From sequence record PQ850618.1: DNA of 64,000 nt. The stretch is one strand, 5' to 3'. This document shows, piece after piece, positions 38,888 to 44,563 of the stretch (its first letter is position 1; each line of letters starts with the position of its first letter). A program made the position numbers and the translations under genes. The stretch is from Escherichia phage ManiWeber_Bas99. The notes beneath the pieces were generated by a model. That model did not search any database and was not told the origin of the DNA. It was given only the letters and a program-made list of their open reading frames with translations.

Positions 38888-39439
38888 TTATACAGTGTAC
38901 GGAGTACCGTCTTGATTCAACCGCACGATGAATTTAAGGTCGACACCGATGATTTCACGAGTATCAAAGATTACATAGTTGTAACGACGCTGACCAGCAA
39001 TGTTTGGGTTGGTGTGAGAGTCGGTCACAACTTCCTGCGCAACCTGAATGCCTTCTTCTTTAAAGAACTTGCGCCATTCAGCAAGTTCAGCGGCAGTCAC
39101 GTGCATACCAAGATGGCTAACCTGATTGTCGTGCGCATCGATGTATTCGATGTTTTCGTGAATCCAGTTGCAACCTTTTGTATAGTCAAGAATTTCAAGC
39201 TCAAGAGGCTTACCAGCGCCGCCATCGGTGCCGTTGCCAGCCTGATAGTTGAAGCGCAAGTCAGCTTCGTTGGTGCAATCGCCGCGCTGACCCTTAAAGA
39301 CATCAGCTTCAAATACGCGACCAGTAGCAACAACGTGATCATGGAACCATTCTGTCAGGCCGATTTTAGCCAGGAAATTCTGTGCGCGCTGAGCACCTGG
39401 AATTGACAGGGCGATTTGTTCAATTTTAAAATGTGGCAT
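38888..39439 (-). CDS. hypothetical protein
   Basis: 183 aa ORF with no confident motif. Confidence 0.45.
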   Translation of the reverse strand: MPHFKIEQIALSIPGAQRAQNFLAKIGLTEWFHDHVVATGRVFEADVFKGQRGDCTNEADLRFNYQAGNGTDGGAGKPLELEILDYTKGCNWIHENIEYIDAHDNQVSHLGMHVTAAELAEWRKFFKEEGIQVAQEVVTDSHTNPNIAGQRRYNYVIFDTREIIGVDLKFIVRLNQDGTPYTV

Positions 39440-39459
39440 TTTGTTTCCTTAATTAAATA

Positions 39460-39630
39460 TTATTGATTAATTACTGTGTTGCCTTCGATGGAATAAGTCT
39501 CAATGGAACCGACGCGCTCGTGGTTAATCTTTGCGTTTTCGATTCTTATTACTTCAAATCCAACACCTTCTTGATCAATCTTCACTTCTGCTACGTCGCC
39601 AATCACTTCTACAACAACTTTGATAGTCAT
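39460..39630 (-). CDS. small hypothetical protein (56 aa)
   Basis: Fills the gap between two minus-strand genes; weak RBS; not in the ORF track. Confidence 0.3.
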   Translation of the reverse strand: MTIKVVVEVIGDVAEVKIDQEGVGFEVIRIENAKINHERVGSIETYSIEGNTVINQ

Positions 39631-39633
39631 GAT

Positions 39634-40317
39634 TTATTTCCCAAATGGAATATCAGTACCAGACATAAAGCGCCATGCGCCCGTAATTAAGATATGGCGA
39701 ATGAAGTCAGCAATTACTTGCGGCTCAGTCTCCAATCCATTCATCAGCGCCTTTTTCTGGTATTCAGCAGCATACTCAGGAGTCCAGCCGCGAGTCGCGC
39801 AAACAGCATCTTCAATCTGTTTGGACATGCCAGTACCACGTAGCTTATTAGGACTAATAGAAAATACCGTGATCCCGTATTTAGGCGTAAGCTCGTGAGC
39901 CATCTGCTTGCTAATCATGAGCGCAGCAGCCTTGGAAGCATTATAACACAAGCTGGATGTCATAGGAATATGCGCAGCGTTGGAAACGATATTGATCACA
40001 AAACCTTTGTTGTCGATAAGACTTTTCAGCGCGGCTTGAGTCGTGTTGACGAAAGAGAAGGCGTTGGTGTGCATAACGCGATTGAACTCTTCGTAGTTAA
40101 CATCTTCAAACCAGTTGTTGGAGTTGACGCCAGCACAGTTGATCAAGCCTTCTACATCATATGGGCTTAAAATTTCTTTCATCTGTTTCGCGTCGCGGAC
40201 GTCATATCCGTATGCTGAATCGATTCCAAGCACGTTATGACCGTAAGCGCCAAGGGTGTCAAAAATAGATTTACCAAGACCGGAATTGGAACCTGTTACA
40301 ACAATTACTTTTTTCAT
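39634..40317 (-). CDS. short-chain dehydrogenase/reductase (SDR)
   Basis: 227 aa; VTGSNSGLGKS (TGxxxGxG NAD(P)-binding) and YNASK (catalytic YxxxK). Confidence 0.7.
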   Translation of the reverse strand: MKKVIVVTGSNSGLGKSIFDTLGAYGHNVLGIDSAYGYDVRDAKQMKEILSPYDVEGLINCAGVNSNNWFEDVNYEEFNRVMHTNAFSFVNTTQAALKSLIDNKGFVINIVSNAAHIPMTSSLCYNASKAAALMISKQMAHELTPKYGITVFSISPNKLRGTGMSKQIEDAVCATRGWTPEYAAEYQKKALMNGLETEPQVIADFIRHILITGAWRFMSGTDIPFGK

Positions 40318-40382: not shown

Positions 40383-41255
40383 CTATTTATTGAAATTAAT
40401 ATTGTGGGTGTTGACGAGACGTTCACACATGGCGCTGTAAACACCATCGTCGTGTATAGAGTCTTCGTGCTTCAGGCCGCTGATTGCAAAGCGTGTAAGC
40501 TTGACAATCTTAAGCTCGAACAGATGCCACATGTGGTAGTCTTCCGGCGTTTTCAACGTTACGCCATTAGGGAAAAGCACCTGCATAACCTGGCCAACCA
40601 TCACGGCATTATCGCCATAGACAGCGTTGCGCTCACGGAAGGTTGCTGCCATTGCATCAAGAATATCGGCGGCAGTTGCCGGAGATTGTTCAACTTCCAC
40701 AGCCTTAGTCTCTTCTTGCCCTGTTGCGCTTGGATCAATTGCTAATTGTTGCACCACTTCACCTGCCTTGCAAAGATTAAATGTAAAAGCGATTTTATTT
40801 TGAGCAACGGAATTATAATACAATGCTTCATCTTGCATCCGCGCGAGCACGTCTTGTCGGTCGTCGAATACATTGATGATTCGATAATCGCCGTGCCGCA
40901 ATGCGTGCGATAGCCATGCAGATTTCATAATAGTTGATGGACGTTTGTCGCCATAGTCTCTCATCTTGATTGTAAATTCATCAAAAGGAAAAACATTGTC
41001 CAGACGTTCAAAAGTCACTTGTCTGTATTTTTCTGGCCTTGCAGTCCAATATTCAACCGCCTCACCGCGAAGAGATGCCGACTCTACTGCTGATGCAATG
41101 TGAGGATAGAACTGATCATAACCAATACCGCTGTGATAGTCATCATAGTCTGACAACGGACCTGCCACCTTGATGCGGTCTAAGCGCCAACGGTCATCAA
41201 ACAGCGTTCCGTCAAGGTCGAATACGTTTAATATTTGGTTATTTTTAATACTCAT
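40383..41255 (-). CDS. HAD-superfamily phosphatase fused to a domain of unknown function
   Basis: 290 aa; N-terminal FDLDGTLFDD is the HAD DxDGT nucleophile motif; C-terminal half unassigned. Confidence 0.5.
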   Translation of the reverse strand: MSIKNNQILNVFDLDGTLFDDRWRLDRIKVAGPLSDYDDYHSGIGYDQFYPHIASAVESASLRGEAVEYWTARPEKYRQVTFERLDNVFPFDEFTIKMRDYGDKRPSTIMKSAWLSHALRHGDYRIINVFDDRQDVLARMQDEALYYNSVAQNKIAFTFNLCKAGEVVQQLAIDPSATGQEETKAVEVEQSPATAADILDAMAATFRERNAVYGDNAVMVGQVMQVLFPNGVTLKTPEDYHMWHLFELKIVKLTRFAISGLKHEDSIHDDGVYSAMCERLVNTHNINFNK

Positions 41256-42061
41256 CCCTTTGACACTCCATCTTTAGCAACTGGATTGTTTGTGATTGGC
41301 GCGGCATCCCAAAACTGGATGCGCAACTCTTCTTGCTGTGCCGTGGTATCCATCCAATCACGATACCACGGGCAATGGGCTTTGCCATGACGAGGAAACG
41401 CGCATTTACCCATACCGATGCATTGCGGCTGTAGTAAAGGATTAGCCCATGGGTGCACCTTGAGGACTTCCGCAACCATTGCGCGAAATACTTCTTGATA
41501 CTCACCTTGTGTGCGCGTGCACAAGCGGTTTGACGCCATCTGCTGCAGCGTGCGCAAGTTGAACTTTGCCATGATATGCGTTTGCATATTAGAAGGCAAC
41601 ACGGCACGTGCATCCTGAATCTCTGCGCCAGCCGCGCGAAGTTCTTGATACAAAGCATCGATAGTCGCCATTGCATCATCCCATTTCTCTGCCAATGAGT
41701 GATGTCTTATGTGCACATCATCAAATGCATTTTCATCATTGCAGTCAGAAGGGTGCTCGAATGCCTTCGGACGAATCGCATCAAATGCAGAAGATTCCTG
41801 AGCGCGGCTGGTGCGTTCTTGGTATGCACCTGTGCGTGTGCGTACCATCTGATGAGTCATATTCTTTGATACAGCGGTGATGTCAAAGATATAGTCCACA
41901 AAGTCAAAAGGCGACTTGATGGTGTCAAGCATGTAGCGCCAATGCTCTTGCTTCTCTGATTCCGTCATCTCAGAGACAGGCTTACCAGTCATGCGCGTGT
42001 TCTTTGTTTCCAGCAAAAGGTCAAGTGCATCTTGGGTGTATCGAATTAATTCAACTTTCAT
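41252..42061 (-). CDS. thyX: flavin-dependent thymidylate synthase-like (ThyX family, variant motif)
   Basis: 269 aa; HQMVRTRTGAYQERTSR aligns with the ThyX RHRx7-8S signature but has Thr in place of His. Confidence 0.6.
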   Translation of the reverse strand: MKVELIRYTQDALDLLLETKNTRMTGKPVSEMTESEKQEHWRYMLDTIKSPFDFVDYIFDITAVSKNMTHQMVRTRTGAYQERTSRAQESSAFDAIRPKAFEHPSDCNDENAFDDVHIRHHSLAEKWDDAMATIDALYQELRAAGAEIQDARAVLPSNMQTHIMAKFNLRTLQQMASNRLCTRTQGEYQEVFRAMVAEVLKVHPWANPLLQPQCIGMGKCAFPRHGKAHCPWYRDWMDTTAQQEELRIQFWDAAPITNNPVAKDGVSKG

Positions 42062-42074
42062 TTTAATTATCCTA

Positions 42075-42521
42075 TTAACGGTAATTTACTAGTTGCTGAT
42101 CACCAGAGAAGGTGCAATGATAAACGAATTGTGCGTTATAAAGCAACTGAAAACTTTTCTTTGGTTCATTATTAGAACTCATTGATGTAAAGATTTCTGC
42201 ACCAGAACGATTTTCACCAATCAGGTTGATAAAGCCGCCAGTTGAACGAGGCTGAACGAAAGTGAAACGTTGCATCCACGGAGTGCGGTTGGCACCTTTC
42301 CCTGTGAATCCTTGAATCTGAATATTCAGGCCTTCTTGCTCGTTCACACCGATGTAAGTGGTAATTGTTGCGCCAGTCGTTGCTGCGGTCTTGCCGTCCA
42401 TCGCTTCGCAATCGTAAACAGCGATTGAATCTGAAGTACGGACAGCGGCTTCAGTCGCTTCCATATACATGGTTCCGAGAATAGCAGTTGCGGCAAGCGC
42501 GATTCCAGTGATTCGTTTCAT
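42075..42521 (-). CDS. secreted protein of unknown function
   Basis: 148 aa with N-terminal signal peptide MKRITGIALAATAILGTMYMEA. Confidence 0.5.
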   Translation of the reverse strand: MKRITGIALAATAILGTMYMEATEAAVRTSDSIAVYDCEAMDGKTAATTGATITTYIGVNEQEGLNIQIQGFTGKGANRTPWMQRFTFVQPRSTGGFINLIGENRSGAEIFTSMSSNNEPKKSFQLLYNAQFVYHCTFSGDQQLVNYR

Positions 42522-42586: not shown

Positions 42587-43582
42587 TTATTTATTAGCAA
42601 TATAAGCAAATTTTTGATAGTTATTTGCTTTGATGAGTTTTTCAACTTCAACAAGGTCATGAGCAACGTCATCAAGCAAAATGTTTCGCCAAGTAGCGAA
42701 TCGACCGACACTAAATACGTTCAAATCCATGGTCAGCTGTAGGAGTAGAGCGTGTCGCAAGTCTTTCGGAATGTCGACAATCTTGCCATACTTCTGGTCG
42801 ACCTTTTCAACTTCTTCGAGAGCGATGTCACTCCATGAGAGGCCAAAGGCCGTCAACACTTCGTCGACTTCTGCGCGCAGCTTGATGTCACGGTAACGAG
42901 TAATGCCGCCAGCGGCTTCAACTGCGGCTTCACTTACGCTAACCAAAGGAATTGTTTCAATGATCAGCGTGTCACCAGTGATTGATGCGCGGTAAGTTCT
43001 GACGGAGTAGTCAGGAAAGTAAATGGTTTGATACAGTTCACACTTGCGTTTAATCTTAAAGCGGTAAACACGAATGTTTGCCTTGTCGAATGAGAAATCA
43101 ATCTTTTGATCAATCCCAGCAAGCTTCATTATGACTGGCAGCGGCGATGTGTTGATGATTGGCGTCTCGCTATAGCCGCAAAGAGTATCAACAGGAGTAT
43201 TAAAGAATATGCGGTCACCCAGTTTGTCGACAAGCTGATCATAAAAGTCATCAGGCGCAATATAACGCGTTGCAGTTTTAAGCTTCATGATTGAACGGCT
43301 GCCAAACTGATTGGTGACCTTCATGGAATACATATTGGCAAGGTTGATTGGGCAATGGTCGTGGTAGTAGTTGCCGCGAAAATACACAGCCTTGTCAACT
43401 GTCACGGCTTTAAAAGGGATTCCGGTAATACGGCTTACTTCTTCGCTGCGAAAGCGTAGCAATGCCTTGTGCTGTGGCGCTCGCTCCCCTGCTTCGTACA
43501 CAATAGAGTTCGGGAAGTGACACGCGGTAATAAGTCCTGCCAAACCGCCGCCGATAATCATTACAGGTTGTTTCATGTTCAT
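42587..43582 (-). CDS. Rossmann-fold FAD/NAD(P)-binding protein
   Basis: 331 aa; N-terminal VMIIGGGLAGL dinucleotide-binding motif; substrate unknown. Confidence 0.5.
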   Translation of the reverse strand: MNMKQPVMIIGGGLAGLITACHFPNSIVYEAGERAPQHKALLRFRSEEVSRITGIPFKAVTVDKAVYFRGNYYHDHCPINLANMYSMKVTNQFGSRSIMKLKTATRYIAPDDFYDQLVDKLGDRIFFNTPVDTLCGYSETPIINTSPLPVIMKLAGIDQKIDFSFDKANIRVYRFKIKRKCELYQTIYFPDYSVRTYRASITGDTLIIETIPLVSVSEAAVEAAGGITRYRDIKLRAEVDEVLTAFGLSWSDIALEEVEKVDQKYGKIVDIPKDLRHALLLQLTMDLNVFSVGRFATWRNILLDDVAHDLVEVEKLIKANNYQKFAYIANK

Positions 43583-43717: not shown

Positions 43718-44563
43718 TTATTCCGCTTGATCACCGTCTTCAGCATCGTCGTTGGATTCAACATCGACAAACTCGATGTGACCCATCTCTTCCAGCTTGC
43801 TCAGGTAGGAGCGAACGGAAGCGCCAAACAGTTGATCTTTAACTTTTTCGCCCAGCTCATCGATAGACTGTGCCACACCAACTTCGCCTTCTTTGATCGC
43901 CGCCAGAACGCGTCCACGGGTGGAATGCTCTTGCGGCTGGCTCAGGCCGTTGCCAGTGTAGATGAAGTGAGTGGCTTTTGCACGACGCTGACCGTTTGCC
44001 TTTTTAGCAGCCTTACGTTCTGCGATGGCTTTGCGACGTTCTTCAGCTTCTTTCTTACGCTGTTCTTTCTGCTGTTCTGCAGCTTCTTTAGCCGCAATCT
44101 TAGCAGCTTCACGCTCTGCCTTGCGTTTCGCTTTAGCTTCTTCTTTGGCCTTTTCTTTTTCGGCCTTCGCTGCAGCACGGGCTTGATCACGCTCTGCTTT
44201 CTTGGCCGCAGCCTGCTCAGCTTTCAGGCGCTTGGCTTCTTCTTTAGCCTTTGCCTTTTCGATTTCTTTTGCTGCTTTAGCGGCTTCACGCTCTGCTTTC
44301 TTAGCAGCAGCCTTTTCTGCACGCTCTTTAGCTTTCTTAGCTGCTTCTTCAGCACGCTTCTGAGCCTTCTCATCAGCAGCCTGCTTGCGTTTCAACGCAG
44401 CTTCTTCACGCTTGGCTTGTTTTTCCTGCTCACGCTTCTGGCGTTTTTCTTCGGCTTCTTTCTTTTTAGCCAGGCGTTTTTCTTCAGCCACGCGACGACG
44501 TTCTGCTGCGGCTGCTTGTTTTTCTTCTTTAGATAATACTTTGATTGCTTCGGCCATATTCAC
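43718..44563 (-). CDS. Lys/Ala/Glu-rich low-complexity protein with globular acidic C-terminus
   Basis: 281 aa; about 170 aa of KAEREAAKAAKE-type repeats, then a non-repetitive domain ending in an acidic tail. Confidence 0.55.
   Translation of the reverse strand: MNMAEAIKVLSKEEKQAAAAERRRVAEEKRLAKKKEAEEKRQKREQEKQAKREEAALKRKQAADEKAQKRAEEAAKKAKERAEKAAAKKAEREAAKAAKEIEKAKAKEEAKRLKAEQAAAKKAERDQARAAAKAEKEKAKEEAKAKRKAEREAAKIAAKEAAEQQKEQRKKEAEERRKAIAERKAAKKANGQRRAKATHFIYTGNGLSQPQEHSTRGRVLAAIKEGEVGVAQSIDELGEKVKDQLFGASVRSYLSKLEEMGHIEFVDVESNDDAEDGDQAE

Follow-up and report, generated by a model that had tools for sequence, protein, structure and literature searches.

The ThyX-like gene analysed here encodes a confirmed, genuine yet divergent homologue of the ThyX fold, and the threonine that replaces histidine in its RHR signature is, on sequence comparison, one mark of a large virus-restricted branch of ThyX proteins and no private oddity of one phage. 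Nearly always, this branch has an obligate genomic partner, an orphan flavoprotein that we call p331. The enzyme probably still methylates dUMP, but some of the standard machinery would be remodelled or delegated.

The window, i.e. the whole stretch of 64,000 nucleotides that was analysed, belongs to a Wifcevirus phage of E. coli and has 96% identity to Bas98. The features to which we refer are listed below; Tm denotes residues of T. maritima ThyX.

38888..39439, minus strand: p183, an accessory protein that co-occurs with the SDR
39634..40317, minus strand: SDR, an accessory short-chain dehydrogenase/reductase (Pfam adh_short, 2.6e-31)
40383..41255, minus strand: two-domain protein, HAD phosphatase plus DUF6378 (Pfam, PHROG)
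41252..42061, minus strand: ThyX-like protein, 269 aa, from a divergent branch of the flavin-dependent thymidylate synthase family that is confined to viruses
41372..41521, minus strand: region of four cysteines (C181, C214, C220, C230; alignments), putative metal site
41801..41803, minus strand: A87, at the conserved Tm Tyr91 position (alignment)
41804..41845, minus strand: signature region VRTRTGAYQERTSR, residues 73-86 (three alignments)
41900..41920, minus strand: residues 48-54 (IKSPFDF), in which I48 corresponds to Tm His53, D53 to Tm Glu58 and F54 to Tm His59
42075..42521, minus strand: p148, a small protein whose N-terminal leader is hydrophobic
42587..43582, minus strand: p331, an orphan FAD-binding protein with a UDP-galactopyranose-mutase (UGM)/protoporphyrinogen-oxidase (PPOX)-like fold

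The ThyX-like ORF begins with ATG and has an AGGA about 9 nt upstream in the window sequence. Its product matches Pfam Thy1 (PF02511) with an E-value of 1.2e-29 and 103.9 bits, for a cut-off of 24.8, and the match spans residues 5-205, i.e. positions 2-191 of the 191 of the model. The AF2 model of the protein has a pLDDT of 94.5; its best Foldseek matches are all ThyX structures, with E-values of about 1e-11, the top ones being T. maritima ThyX (TM 0.75-0.78, normalised to target). Yet the score with NCBIfam TIGR02170, the thyX equivalog, is 80.3 bits, below the curated cut-off of 87.9. The earlier identification of the protein as a ThyX-like one, made from the sequence alone, is thus borne out, with the qualification that it is a divergent member of the family.

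The same sequence-only reading had noticed Thr in place of the His of RHR, and this observation is correct. Three independent alignments (phmmer against the PDB ThyX chains, MAFFT with T. maritima ThyX and 115 homologues, and hmmalign) place R74-T75-R76, encoded by CGC ACA CGC at nt 41834-41842, on Tm R78-H79-R80, and the comparison with characterised ThyX proteins upholds the Thr column. In the alignments T84 takes the place of the signature Ser, Tm S88, and next come S85 and the conserved R86 (Tm R90); the query accordingly reads R74-T75-R76-x7-T84, where canonical ThyX has RHRx7S. Both changes, His to Thr and Ser to Thr, are conservative hydrogen-bonding replacements. All three alignments rule out a signature His at a shifted position: the single nearby His is H70, in 'THQ', and it is not a displaced signature residue, since canonical enzymes carry the same His ('SHQLVRHR'). 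RTR is neither a chance occurrence nor a sequencing event, because it is found in 120 out of the 120 closest database homologues, which range from 53 to 100% identity.

The further step, from the His-to-Thr substitution to an altered chemistry or a different pyrimidine, does not follow. The RHR residues form hydrogen bonds with the phosphates and the ribityl of FAD (PMC6514825). Among 89 diverse homologues, position 79 (Tm) is T in 61, H in 18, S in 4, N in 4 and Q in 1, all of them residues capable of hydrogen bonding, and about 21 switches are inferred at this position on an NJ tree; T, F, Q or Y is also occasionally found there in otherwise canonical ThyX proteins. Since the position alternates between T, H, S, N and Q inside the clade, the substitution by itself probably amounts to a conservative swap of an FAD-phosphate/ribityl ligand. 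Long relatives of an 'RQR' type are present among the homologues as well. Moreover, the query and its homologues retain the residues responsible for binding and activating the uracil nucleotide. The dUMP/flavin residues Tm Q75, R78, R80, E86, R90, R147, R165 and R174 are all present, as Q71, R74, R76, E82, R86, R152, R170 and R179, respectively; R74, R152 and R179 are invariant in the 89 homologues, R76, R86, R170 and Q71 are conserved in at least 90% of them, and at the Tm E86 position the query has Glu and most homologues have Gln. Tm R78 is known to stabilise FADH- (PMC11940539).

The real active-site differences are all on the folate/reduced-flavin side: compared to T. maritima ThyX, the query has Ile for His53, Phe for His59, Ala for Tyr91 and Arg for His178. 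Tyr91 and His53 are regarded as conserved catalytic or gating residues in ThyX; this stacking pair is absent from the query, which has I48 and A87 instead. The divergent clade has I, L or V at Tm 53, F at 59 and A, V, T or I, never Tyr, at 91, in all sequences. In the T. maritima enzyme, His53 makes stacking contacts with folate and reduced flavin, and mutation of Y91 makes flavin oxidation about 1000-fold slower (PMC11940539); because of the latter effect, an enzyme devoid of both residues may be an inefficient stand-alone synthase. It is the losses at 53, 59, 91 and 178, together with the obligate neighbour genes, and not the His-to-Thr change, that make an altered chemistry possible. Another peculiarity is a C-terminal element with four cysteines, absent from every solved ThyX in the comparison with structures. 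C181, C214, C220 and C230 co-vary across homologues (all four are present or none), and C181 lies two residues past the catalytic R179 (Tm R174); this pattern suggests a putative metal site.

The divergent clade is found on more than 550 viral contigs, and its cellular occurrence is limited to 12 MAG contigs among 185,579 species genomes. On the NJ tree, the divergent type forms one clade with 125 out of 128 tips, and its sequences span about 30-100% identity. Among its members are Pbunavirus phages, in which the core trio of p331, ThyX-like protein and HAD phosphatase is present and which are widely used in therapy. No assay of any member of the clade, biochemical or genetic, was found in the searchable literature.

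The linkage of this clade to p331 is very tight. A p331 HMM match was found near the divergent ThyX in 87 out of 92 loci, versus 0 out of 80 for canonical viral ThyX (Fisher p ~1e-43, the loci being phylogenetically non-independent). In the opposite direction, a search seeded with p331 gave the same picture: a ThyX-like gene is present in 70 out of 74 loci, every one of the divergent type. The p331 stop and the ThyX-like start are no more than 50 bp apart, in either direction, in about 45 out of 75 loci, and the two genes frequently overlap, which suggests translational coupling. RHph_TM39 has a ThyX-like gene and no p331 within +/-9 kb, and fusions of the ThyX-like protein with p331 or the HAD protein were absent from the 25 long homologues. 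The N-terminus of p331 has a GxGxxG motif and an acidic residue, E30, both conserved; this Rossmann-type FAD domain and the structural similarity place p331 in the UGM/PPOX/amine-oxidase FAD superfamily. Its best structural match is UGM, with an identity of only 18% and no match to Pfam GLF, and searches of Pfam, NCBIfam and the PDB (phmmer and profile) returned the dinucleotide-binding motif only. In GenBank, the p331 homologues are labelled 'galactopyranose' by one annotator and 'oxidoreductase' by another.

The clade is linked as tightly to the HAD phosphatase plus DUF6378 as to p331, the HAD gene being present in 85 out of 92 divergent loci and 0 out of 80 canonical viral ones. In the window, the ATG of the HAD gene overlaps the stop codon of the ThyX-like gene (ATGA at 41252-41255). 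The protein, assigned to PHROG 4889, has an N-terminal HAD domain of the PNKP-phosphatase type with a DLDGT motif (Pfam HAD_PNKP, 5.3e-8). For the C-terminal part (about 100 aa), 11 out of 18 homologues matched DUF6378, while a Pfam search with the window's own copy gave zero matches; this part may resemble a MazG-like pyrophosphohydrolase. The remaining genes are less constant. Found in Wifcevirus only, p148 sits between p331 and the ThyX-like gene and is probably outside the conserved cassette; the SDR occurs in 35 clustered loci, about one third of the total, and p183 has a non-significant similarity to the glyoxalase/VOC-like Pfam Glyoxalase_4 (E=0.09). Known hypermodification genes, such as those for kinases and transferases, were not seen in the cassette.

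The ThyX-like gene is located in the phage replication module, and in most loci a DnaE/DnaQ-type replicase adjoins the cassette. RHph_Y65, a Rhizobium jumbo phage with a PolA replicase, has the trio as well, next to a dUTPase and a ribonucleotide reductase (RNR), and a dCMP deaminase is another product of its genome. Since no ThyA was found in the RHph_Y65 genome, the ThyX-like gene is its sole thymidylate-synthase candidate. The dUTPase/dCMP deaminase/RNR context makes dUMP the likely substrate; it is silent on the product.

We can thus propose that the ThyX-like protein would bind FAD and a uracil deoxynucleotide and move a one-carbon unit to C5, with dTMP for phage DNA synthesis as the most likely product. 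Thr75 would stand in for His as hydrogen-bond donor to the FAD phosphate/ribityl. In canonical enzymes the His53-Tyr91 pair speeds methylene transfer; as the clade lacks this pair, flavin reduction and/or one-carbon loading would be done differently, most plausibly with p331, to judge from its linkage and fold. The HAD phosphatase and DUF6378 may adjust the nucleotide pool, either through substrate supply or through nucleotide removal. We give about even chances to this explanation as a whole, i.e. a p331-dependent flavoenzyme that methylates dUMP at C5, probably still to give dTMP, with HAD/DUF6378 tuning the pool. Counted against it were the loss of Tyr91 and His53, the TIGR02170 score below cut-off, the RHph_TM39 locus, the arrangement of the phosphatase, which recalls thymine replacement, and the restriction resistance of Wifcevirus.

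Three other explanations have to be weighed. The protein could be an ordinary self-sufficient ThyX, whose substitutions, H79T, H53I and Y91A included, are tolerated drift and whose neighbours are functionally unconnected. This would agree with the strong Thy1 match, with the conservation of the arginines for nucleotide and flavin binding and with the existence of RHph_TM39; besides, gene order in phage modules can last without functional coupling, and the DnaE/DnaQ-type replicase is shared by most loci. However, Ile at 53, Phe at 59 and a residue other than Tyr at 91 are fixed clade-wide, down to ~30% identity, and so the losses are not random drift; the distribution of p331 (87/92 against 0/80), the frequent gene overlaps and the recurrence of the linkage in jumbo phages of an unrelated lineage, whose replicase is different, also speak against unconnected neighbours. 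We regard this explanation as rather unlikely. Very improbable, in our view, is a substrate other than dUMP (UMP as for PolB, uracil in nucleic acid or another nucleotide), or else a non-catalytic or anti-defence role. A precedent is provided by PolB, a ThyX scaffold re-targeted to UMP (PMC5954106) which is among our structural matches, and Tyr91 is indeed gone from the active-site loop; but the residues contacting uracil and phosphate are conserved, the neighbours are DNA replication genes, joined in RHph_Y65 by the dUTPase, RNR and dCMP deaminase, and a Pfam scan found no extra nucleic-acid-binding domain in the ThyX-like protein.

Another possibility is that the cassette serves a non-canonical pyrimidine: the ThyX-like protein and the flavoprotein would produce a C5-modified dUMP, e.g. 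5-hydroxymethyl-dUMP or a derivative, HAD/DUF6378 would remove dTMP/dTTP, the SDR and p183 of Wifcevirus would elaborate the product, and the DNA would be protected from restriction. A phosphatase beside a thymidylate-synthase homologue is classical in thymine-replacing phages (SP5C/SP8-type, PBS2-type), and here the phosphatase is obligately linked; the loss of H53 and Y91, which steer normal methylene transfer and reduction, the additional redox enzymes of Wifcevirus and the score under the thyX equivalog cut-off point in the same direction. Wifcevirus phages are resistant to almost every restriction system tested, and no mechanism for this protection is known (PMC11990801). Against this, Pbunavirus has the core trio too, and PB1-like DNA was digested by restriction enzymes without comment in a study that flagged YuA-like phages as resistant (PMC4482731), and was cloned in and rebooted from yeast (PMC10913387). 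Furthermore, the cassette lacks the known hypermodification genes, the His-to-Thr argument has no bearing on product chemistry, modified bases are without direct evidence in any of these phages, and nothing specific on DNA modification in Wifcevirus or Pbunavirus was found in the searchable literature. Taken jointly, this set of proposals is unlikely. We consider distinctly unlikely the joint claim that p331, ThyX, HAD and DUF6378 (plus SDR and p183 in Wifcevirus) form a virus-specific pathway to a non-canonical C5-substituted deoxyuridylate, operating through flavin-iminium chemistry, excluding thymidylate and protecting from restriction.

ThyX is an antibiotic target and a model for flavin-mediated methylene transfer, for which His53, Tyr91 and RHR are held essential. 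A clade of more than 550 contigs without His53 and Tyr91, with a variable RHR and a nucleotide site that is kept, bears on these supposed essentials. If the dUMP-methylating explanation is true, the canonical catalytic roles would be dispensable or supplied in trans, the latter amounting to a two-component flavin thymidylate synthase; alternatively, the ThyX scaffold would have been recruited to a different nucleotide product, and the cassette may help account for the restriction resistance of Wifcevirus. There is also a consequence for annotation, since in hundreds of phage genomes the gene is annotated as 'thymidylate synthase' and the partner as a 'hypothetical protein'.

Comparison with known systems shows what is shared and what is not. 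Canonical ThyX/FDTS enzymes (T. maritima TM0449, M. tuberculosis, H. pylori, PBCV-1) have the same fold, Pfam family and nucleotide/flavin residues, and their genes are likewise found among replication and nucleotide-metabolism genes; the query differs by RTR, the signature Thr, Ile53/Phe59/Ala91/Arg178 (Tm numbering) and the four-Cys C-terminal extension, and the divergent type by its nearly constant association with p331 and the HAD phosphatase, seen at none of the 80 canonical viral loci. The UGM/PPOX/amine-oxidase flavoproteins are much larger than p331 (331 aa), which adjoins divergent ThyX only. The phage dUMP/dCMP hydroxymethylases (SPO1, T4, M6, ViI) are ThyA homologues, often encoded near nucleotide phosphatases or pyrophosphatases, and offer a functional analogy, that of a thymidylate-synthase homologue diverted to a modified pyrimidine. 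An identity as a ThyA-type hydroxymethylase was rejected: the fold is that of ThyX, unrelated to ThyA, and no ThyA-like sequence is present within the 64-kb window. We know of no flavin-dependent hydroxymethylase of ThyX fold. A last comparison is with PolB, the ThyX paralogue of polyoxin biosynthesis, a bacterial secondary-metabolism enzyme that retains the RHR motif. It is a ThyX-scaffold methylase of UMP/dUMP (PMC5954106). By sequence, its similarity to the query is very weak (phmmer E=0.31 to 4p5a), and genes of a nucleoside-antibiotic cluster of the PolB type are absent from the query locus, which lies in a phage replication module. Both proteins nevertheless have the ThyX fold (PDB 4p5a/4p5b, structural match with TM 0.70-0.72), both have diverged from housekeeping ThyX, and both are encoded within a dedicated gene cluster.

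The window is the nearly complete genome of a Wifcevirus myovirus infecting E. coli. Isolation of Wifcevirus is reported to have been possible only on E. coli K-12 devoid of cryptic prophages, and the reported latent period is very short, 3-5 min (PMC11990801). Over a 7-kb stretch around the ThyX-like gene, identity is 96.4% with HermannAdler_Bas98 and 95% with FEC19, WFC and WFH. Positions 41252-42061 hold exactly one ORF, on the minus strand, which encodes 269 amino acids and is labelled 'thymidylate synthase' in GenBank. Residues 1-205 of its product match the Pfam Thy1/ThyX family (E=1.2e-29), and the predicted structure (AlphaFold, pLDDT 94.5) superposes on T. maritima ThyX, T. thermophilus Thy1 and PolB with target-normalised TM scores of 0.7-0.78.

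The sequence-only reading had proposed that Thr takes the place of His in the RHR signature of this protein, and this proved right. Residues 73-86 read VRTRTGAYQERTSR, the RTR codons being CGC ACA CGC at nt 41834-41842. The T. maritima reference used for numbering (Tm) is what we take to be the sequence of that enzyme, and it agrees with the PDB fragments in the phmmer output. It also fits the published numbering of S30, H53, R78, N85, E86, S88 and Y91 (PMC11940539). The same register was obtained in three alignments, i.e. a phmmer search of solved ThyX chains, a MAFFT alignment that included T. maritima ThyX and 115 homologues, and an HMM alignment:

Query R74: T. maritima R78
Query T75: T. 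maritima H79
Query R76: T. maritima R80
Query E82: T. maritima E86
Query T84: T. maritima S88
Query R86: T. maritima R90

These alignments ruled out a signature His at a shifted position; H70, in the motif THQ, occurs in canonical enzymes too.

All 120 closest homologues (53-100% identity) have RTR, among them those of Pbunavirus (PB1-like) Pseudomonas phages, at 49% identity; of the 150 top-ranking cluster representatives out of 1.84 billion proteins, most have RTR and some RSR, RNR, RQR or RHR. We classed as the divergent type those sequences whose Tm53 residue is aliphatic and whose Tm91 residue is not Tyr. In a tree rooted on T. maritima (a simple neighbour-joining tree, as were all our trees), this type forms one clade (125 of 128 tips), within which position Tm79 has undergone about 21 changes among T, H, S, N and Q; T, F, Q or Y is occasionally present there in otherwise canonical ThyX. 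Since the RHR residues hydrogen-bond to the AMP phosphate, the ribityl and the FMN phosphate of FAD (PMC6514825), Thr is a plausible conservative replacement of His, and the substitution, which had been read as a possible sign of new chemistry, is by itself weak evidence for it.

The clade is set apart by other active-site positions. Residues Tm Q75, R78, R80, R90, R147, R165 and R174, which are involved in dUMP binding, uracil polarisation and FADH- stabilisation, are invariant or nearly so across homologues, and four positions are replaced jointly throughout the divergent clade:

Tm His53: Ile
Tm His59: Phe
Tm Tyr91: Ala, Val, Thr or Ile
Tm His178: Arg

His53, which Tyr91 and Asn85 keep in place, forms a stack with the folate pterin as well as with the reduced isoalloxazine; mutation of Tyr91 makes flavin oxidation during methylation about 1000-fold slower (PMC11940539). 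With the nucleotide-side residues kept and the His53/Tyr91 pair lost, the residue pattern suggests that the dUMP side of the pocket is intact and that its folate/reduced-flavin side has been rebuilt.

Other features of the family were seen in passing. Four cysteines (C181, C214, C220 and C230; window 41372-41521), of which C181 is two residues past the catalytic Arg (Tm R174), occur on an all-or-none basis across homologues (59 of 89) and also in many viral ThyX proteins canonical in other respects. This C-terminal element is in no solved ThyX structure and could be a putative Zn or Fe-S site adjoining the flavin. Five metagenomic proteins of 350-573 aa (P0218, P0226, P0229, P0232 and P0265) combine the four cysteines with an RQR signature and long unrelated N-terminal extensions; they may be ThyX of chlamydial type. 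Another metagenomic protein (P0166, 637 aa) carries an intein/HNH-like insertion of about 390 aa directly before its THQLVRHR motif, and thus the signature region is a homing-element target, of the same kind as in the known mycobacteriophage ThyX inteins.

The divergent clade is a virus-only family. With 185,579 bacterial and archaeal species represented by one genome apiece, clade-specific patterns retrieved only 12 loci, every one of them on a MAG contig and 10 with the same gene cassette as in the window; the same alignment gave at least 551 confirmed relatives in IMG/VR. In this cassette the ThyX-like gene follows p331, a predicted FAD-binding protein (42587-43582, minus strand) with a UDP-galactopyranose-mutase/protoporphyrinogen-oxidase-like fold, and precedes a HAD phosphatase gene (40383-41255, minus strand). 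A p331 homologue lies just upstream in 87 of 92 divergent-type loci and in none of 80 viral loci with canonical (H53/H59/H79/Y91) ThyX, and the HAD phosphatase is found in 85 of the former versus none of the latter (Fisher p ~1e-43 and ~1e-41, nominal values because the loci are related and not phylogenetically independent). Conversely, a search seeded with p331 found a ThyX-like gene, always of the divergent type, in 70 of 74 loci; the other four have only 170 to 1,853 bases of sequence downstream of p331. Among cultured phages, those that carry p331 coincide with those that carry divergent ThyX (Pseudomonas 292, Escherichia 26, Serratia 9, Rhizobium 8-10, Xanthomonas 6). The genes are tightly packed: the p331 stop is at most 50 bp from the ThyX-like start in about 45 of 75 loci, with frequent overlap, and in the window the ThyX-like stop and the HAD start share an ATGA. 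Because p331 is also present beside two divergent-type proteins that keep RHR, it tracks the losses of H53, H59 and Y91, not H79T.

In the C-terminal part of the HAD ORF (40383-40800, minus strand), the last 100 aa or so form a separate conserved domain, found in 85 of 94 loci and matching DUF6378 in 11 of 18 homologues. This domain, which other phages have as a gene or domain of its own, is more strongly conserved than the HAD part across the 94 loci; the ORF is annotated 'polynucleotide kinase/phosphorylase' and is without a kinase domain. In about one-third of loci, Wifcevirus included and Pbunavirus excluded, an SDR and a 183-aa protein (38888-40317, minus strand) lie downstream, the latter with a weak, non-significant glyoxalase/VOC-like match. 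As some SDRs are pteridine reductases, the pair might conceivably be connected with the supply of a one-carbon cofactor. Between p331 and the ThyX-like gene, Wifcevirus alone has a 148-aa ORF (42075-42521, minus strand) with a hydrophobic N-terminal leader, for which no family match was found. Positions 43718-44563 (minus strand) encode a 281-aa Lys/Ala/Glu-rich low-complexity protein kept in Wifcevirus and Pbunavirus, annotated 'TolA protein' in relatives and as structural in Pbunavirus.

An independent lineage is provided by RHph_Y65 (NC_070967), a 207-kb Rhizobium jumbo phage of the Kleczkowskaviridae with a PolA-type polymerase. Here a 6-kb stretch holds p331, the ThyX-like gene (RNR motif) and the HAD gene, followed by a dUTPase and both RNR subunits; the genome codes for dCMP deaminase, DHFR and 5'-deoxynucleotidase as well, and ThyA is absent from it. 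DHFR beside a ThyX-type enzyme is unusual, since canonical ThyX yields no dihydrofolate. The p331 homologue and the HAD gene are mis-annotated, as 'polysaccharide deacetylase' and 'phosphoheptose isomerase', and a PurA-like enzyme is labelled '2-aminooxy adenylosuccinate synthetase'.

We propose that the ThyX-like protein is a flavin-dependent enzyme that would methylate dUMP at C5, most likely giving dTMP, with Thr75 serving as a conservative FAD ligand and the reduction or one-carbon-loading half-reaction rebuilt or handed over, probably with p331; for this reading as a whole we see the case as evenly balanced. It would have the protein bind flavin and interact, physically or functionally, with p331, HAD or DUF6378, whose own functions are likewise predicted. 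The gene context of RHph_Y65 points to dUMP as the substrate, and the lack of ThyA to the ThyX-like gene as the sole thymidylate-synthase candidate of that phage; a different substrate or role seems to us very unlikely.

An ordinary, self-sufficient ThyX with merely syntenic neighbours is rather unlikely, given that recurrence of the trio in RHph_Y65 makes the linkage more than PB1-type synteny. In its close relative RHph_TM39 (MN988559) no p331 was found within 9 kb of the ThyX-like gene; p331 and the exonuclease gene next to it seem to have been lost there through a natural deletion, so p331 may be dispensable in some settings. A modified-pyrimidine pathway could draw on the phosphatase of the cassette and the additional redox genes of Wifcevirus, and would suit the resistance to every tested RM system but EcoP1_I, with no protection mechanism known, that the BASEL study reports for Wifcevirus phages (PMC11990801). 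But PB1-like phages share the core trio, and their DNA is restriction-digestible (PMC4482731) and cloneable in yeast (PMC10913387). Literature searches brought up no direct evidence of modified bases in any of these phages, and we consider this pathway unlikely.

Among known systems, the ThyA-derived hydroxymethylases, to which the sequence-only reading had drawn an analogy, are unrelated in fold. PolB offers a precedent for a re-purposed ThyX, with remote similarity to the present protein (E 0.31). In the open-access literature we found no description of the subfamily or of p331 and no assay of any member, which is absence of evidence only. The protein resembles canonical ThyX in fold and Pfam family, but it does not match the RHRx7S signature, lacks the His53/Tyr91 pair and scores 80.3 bits against the NCBI thyX equivalog, just below the threshold of 87.9; we therefore assign it to a virus-specific subfamily of its own, one with dedicated partners, and do not regard it as a plain thyX orthologue.
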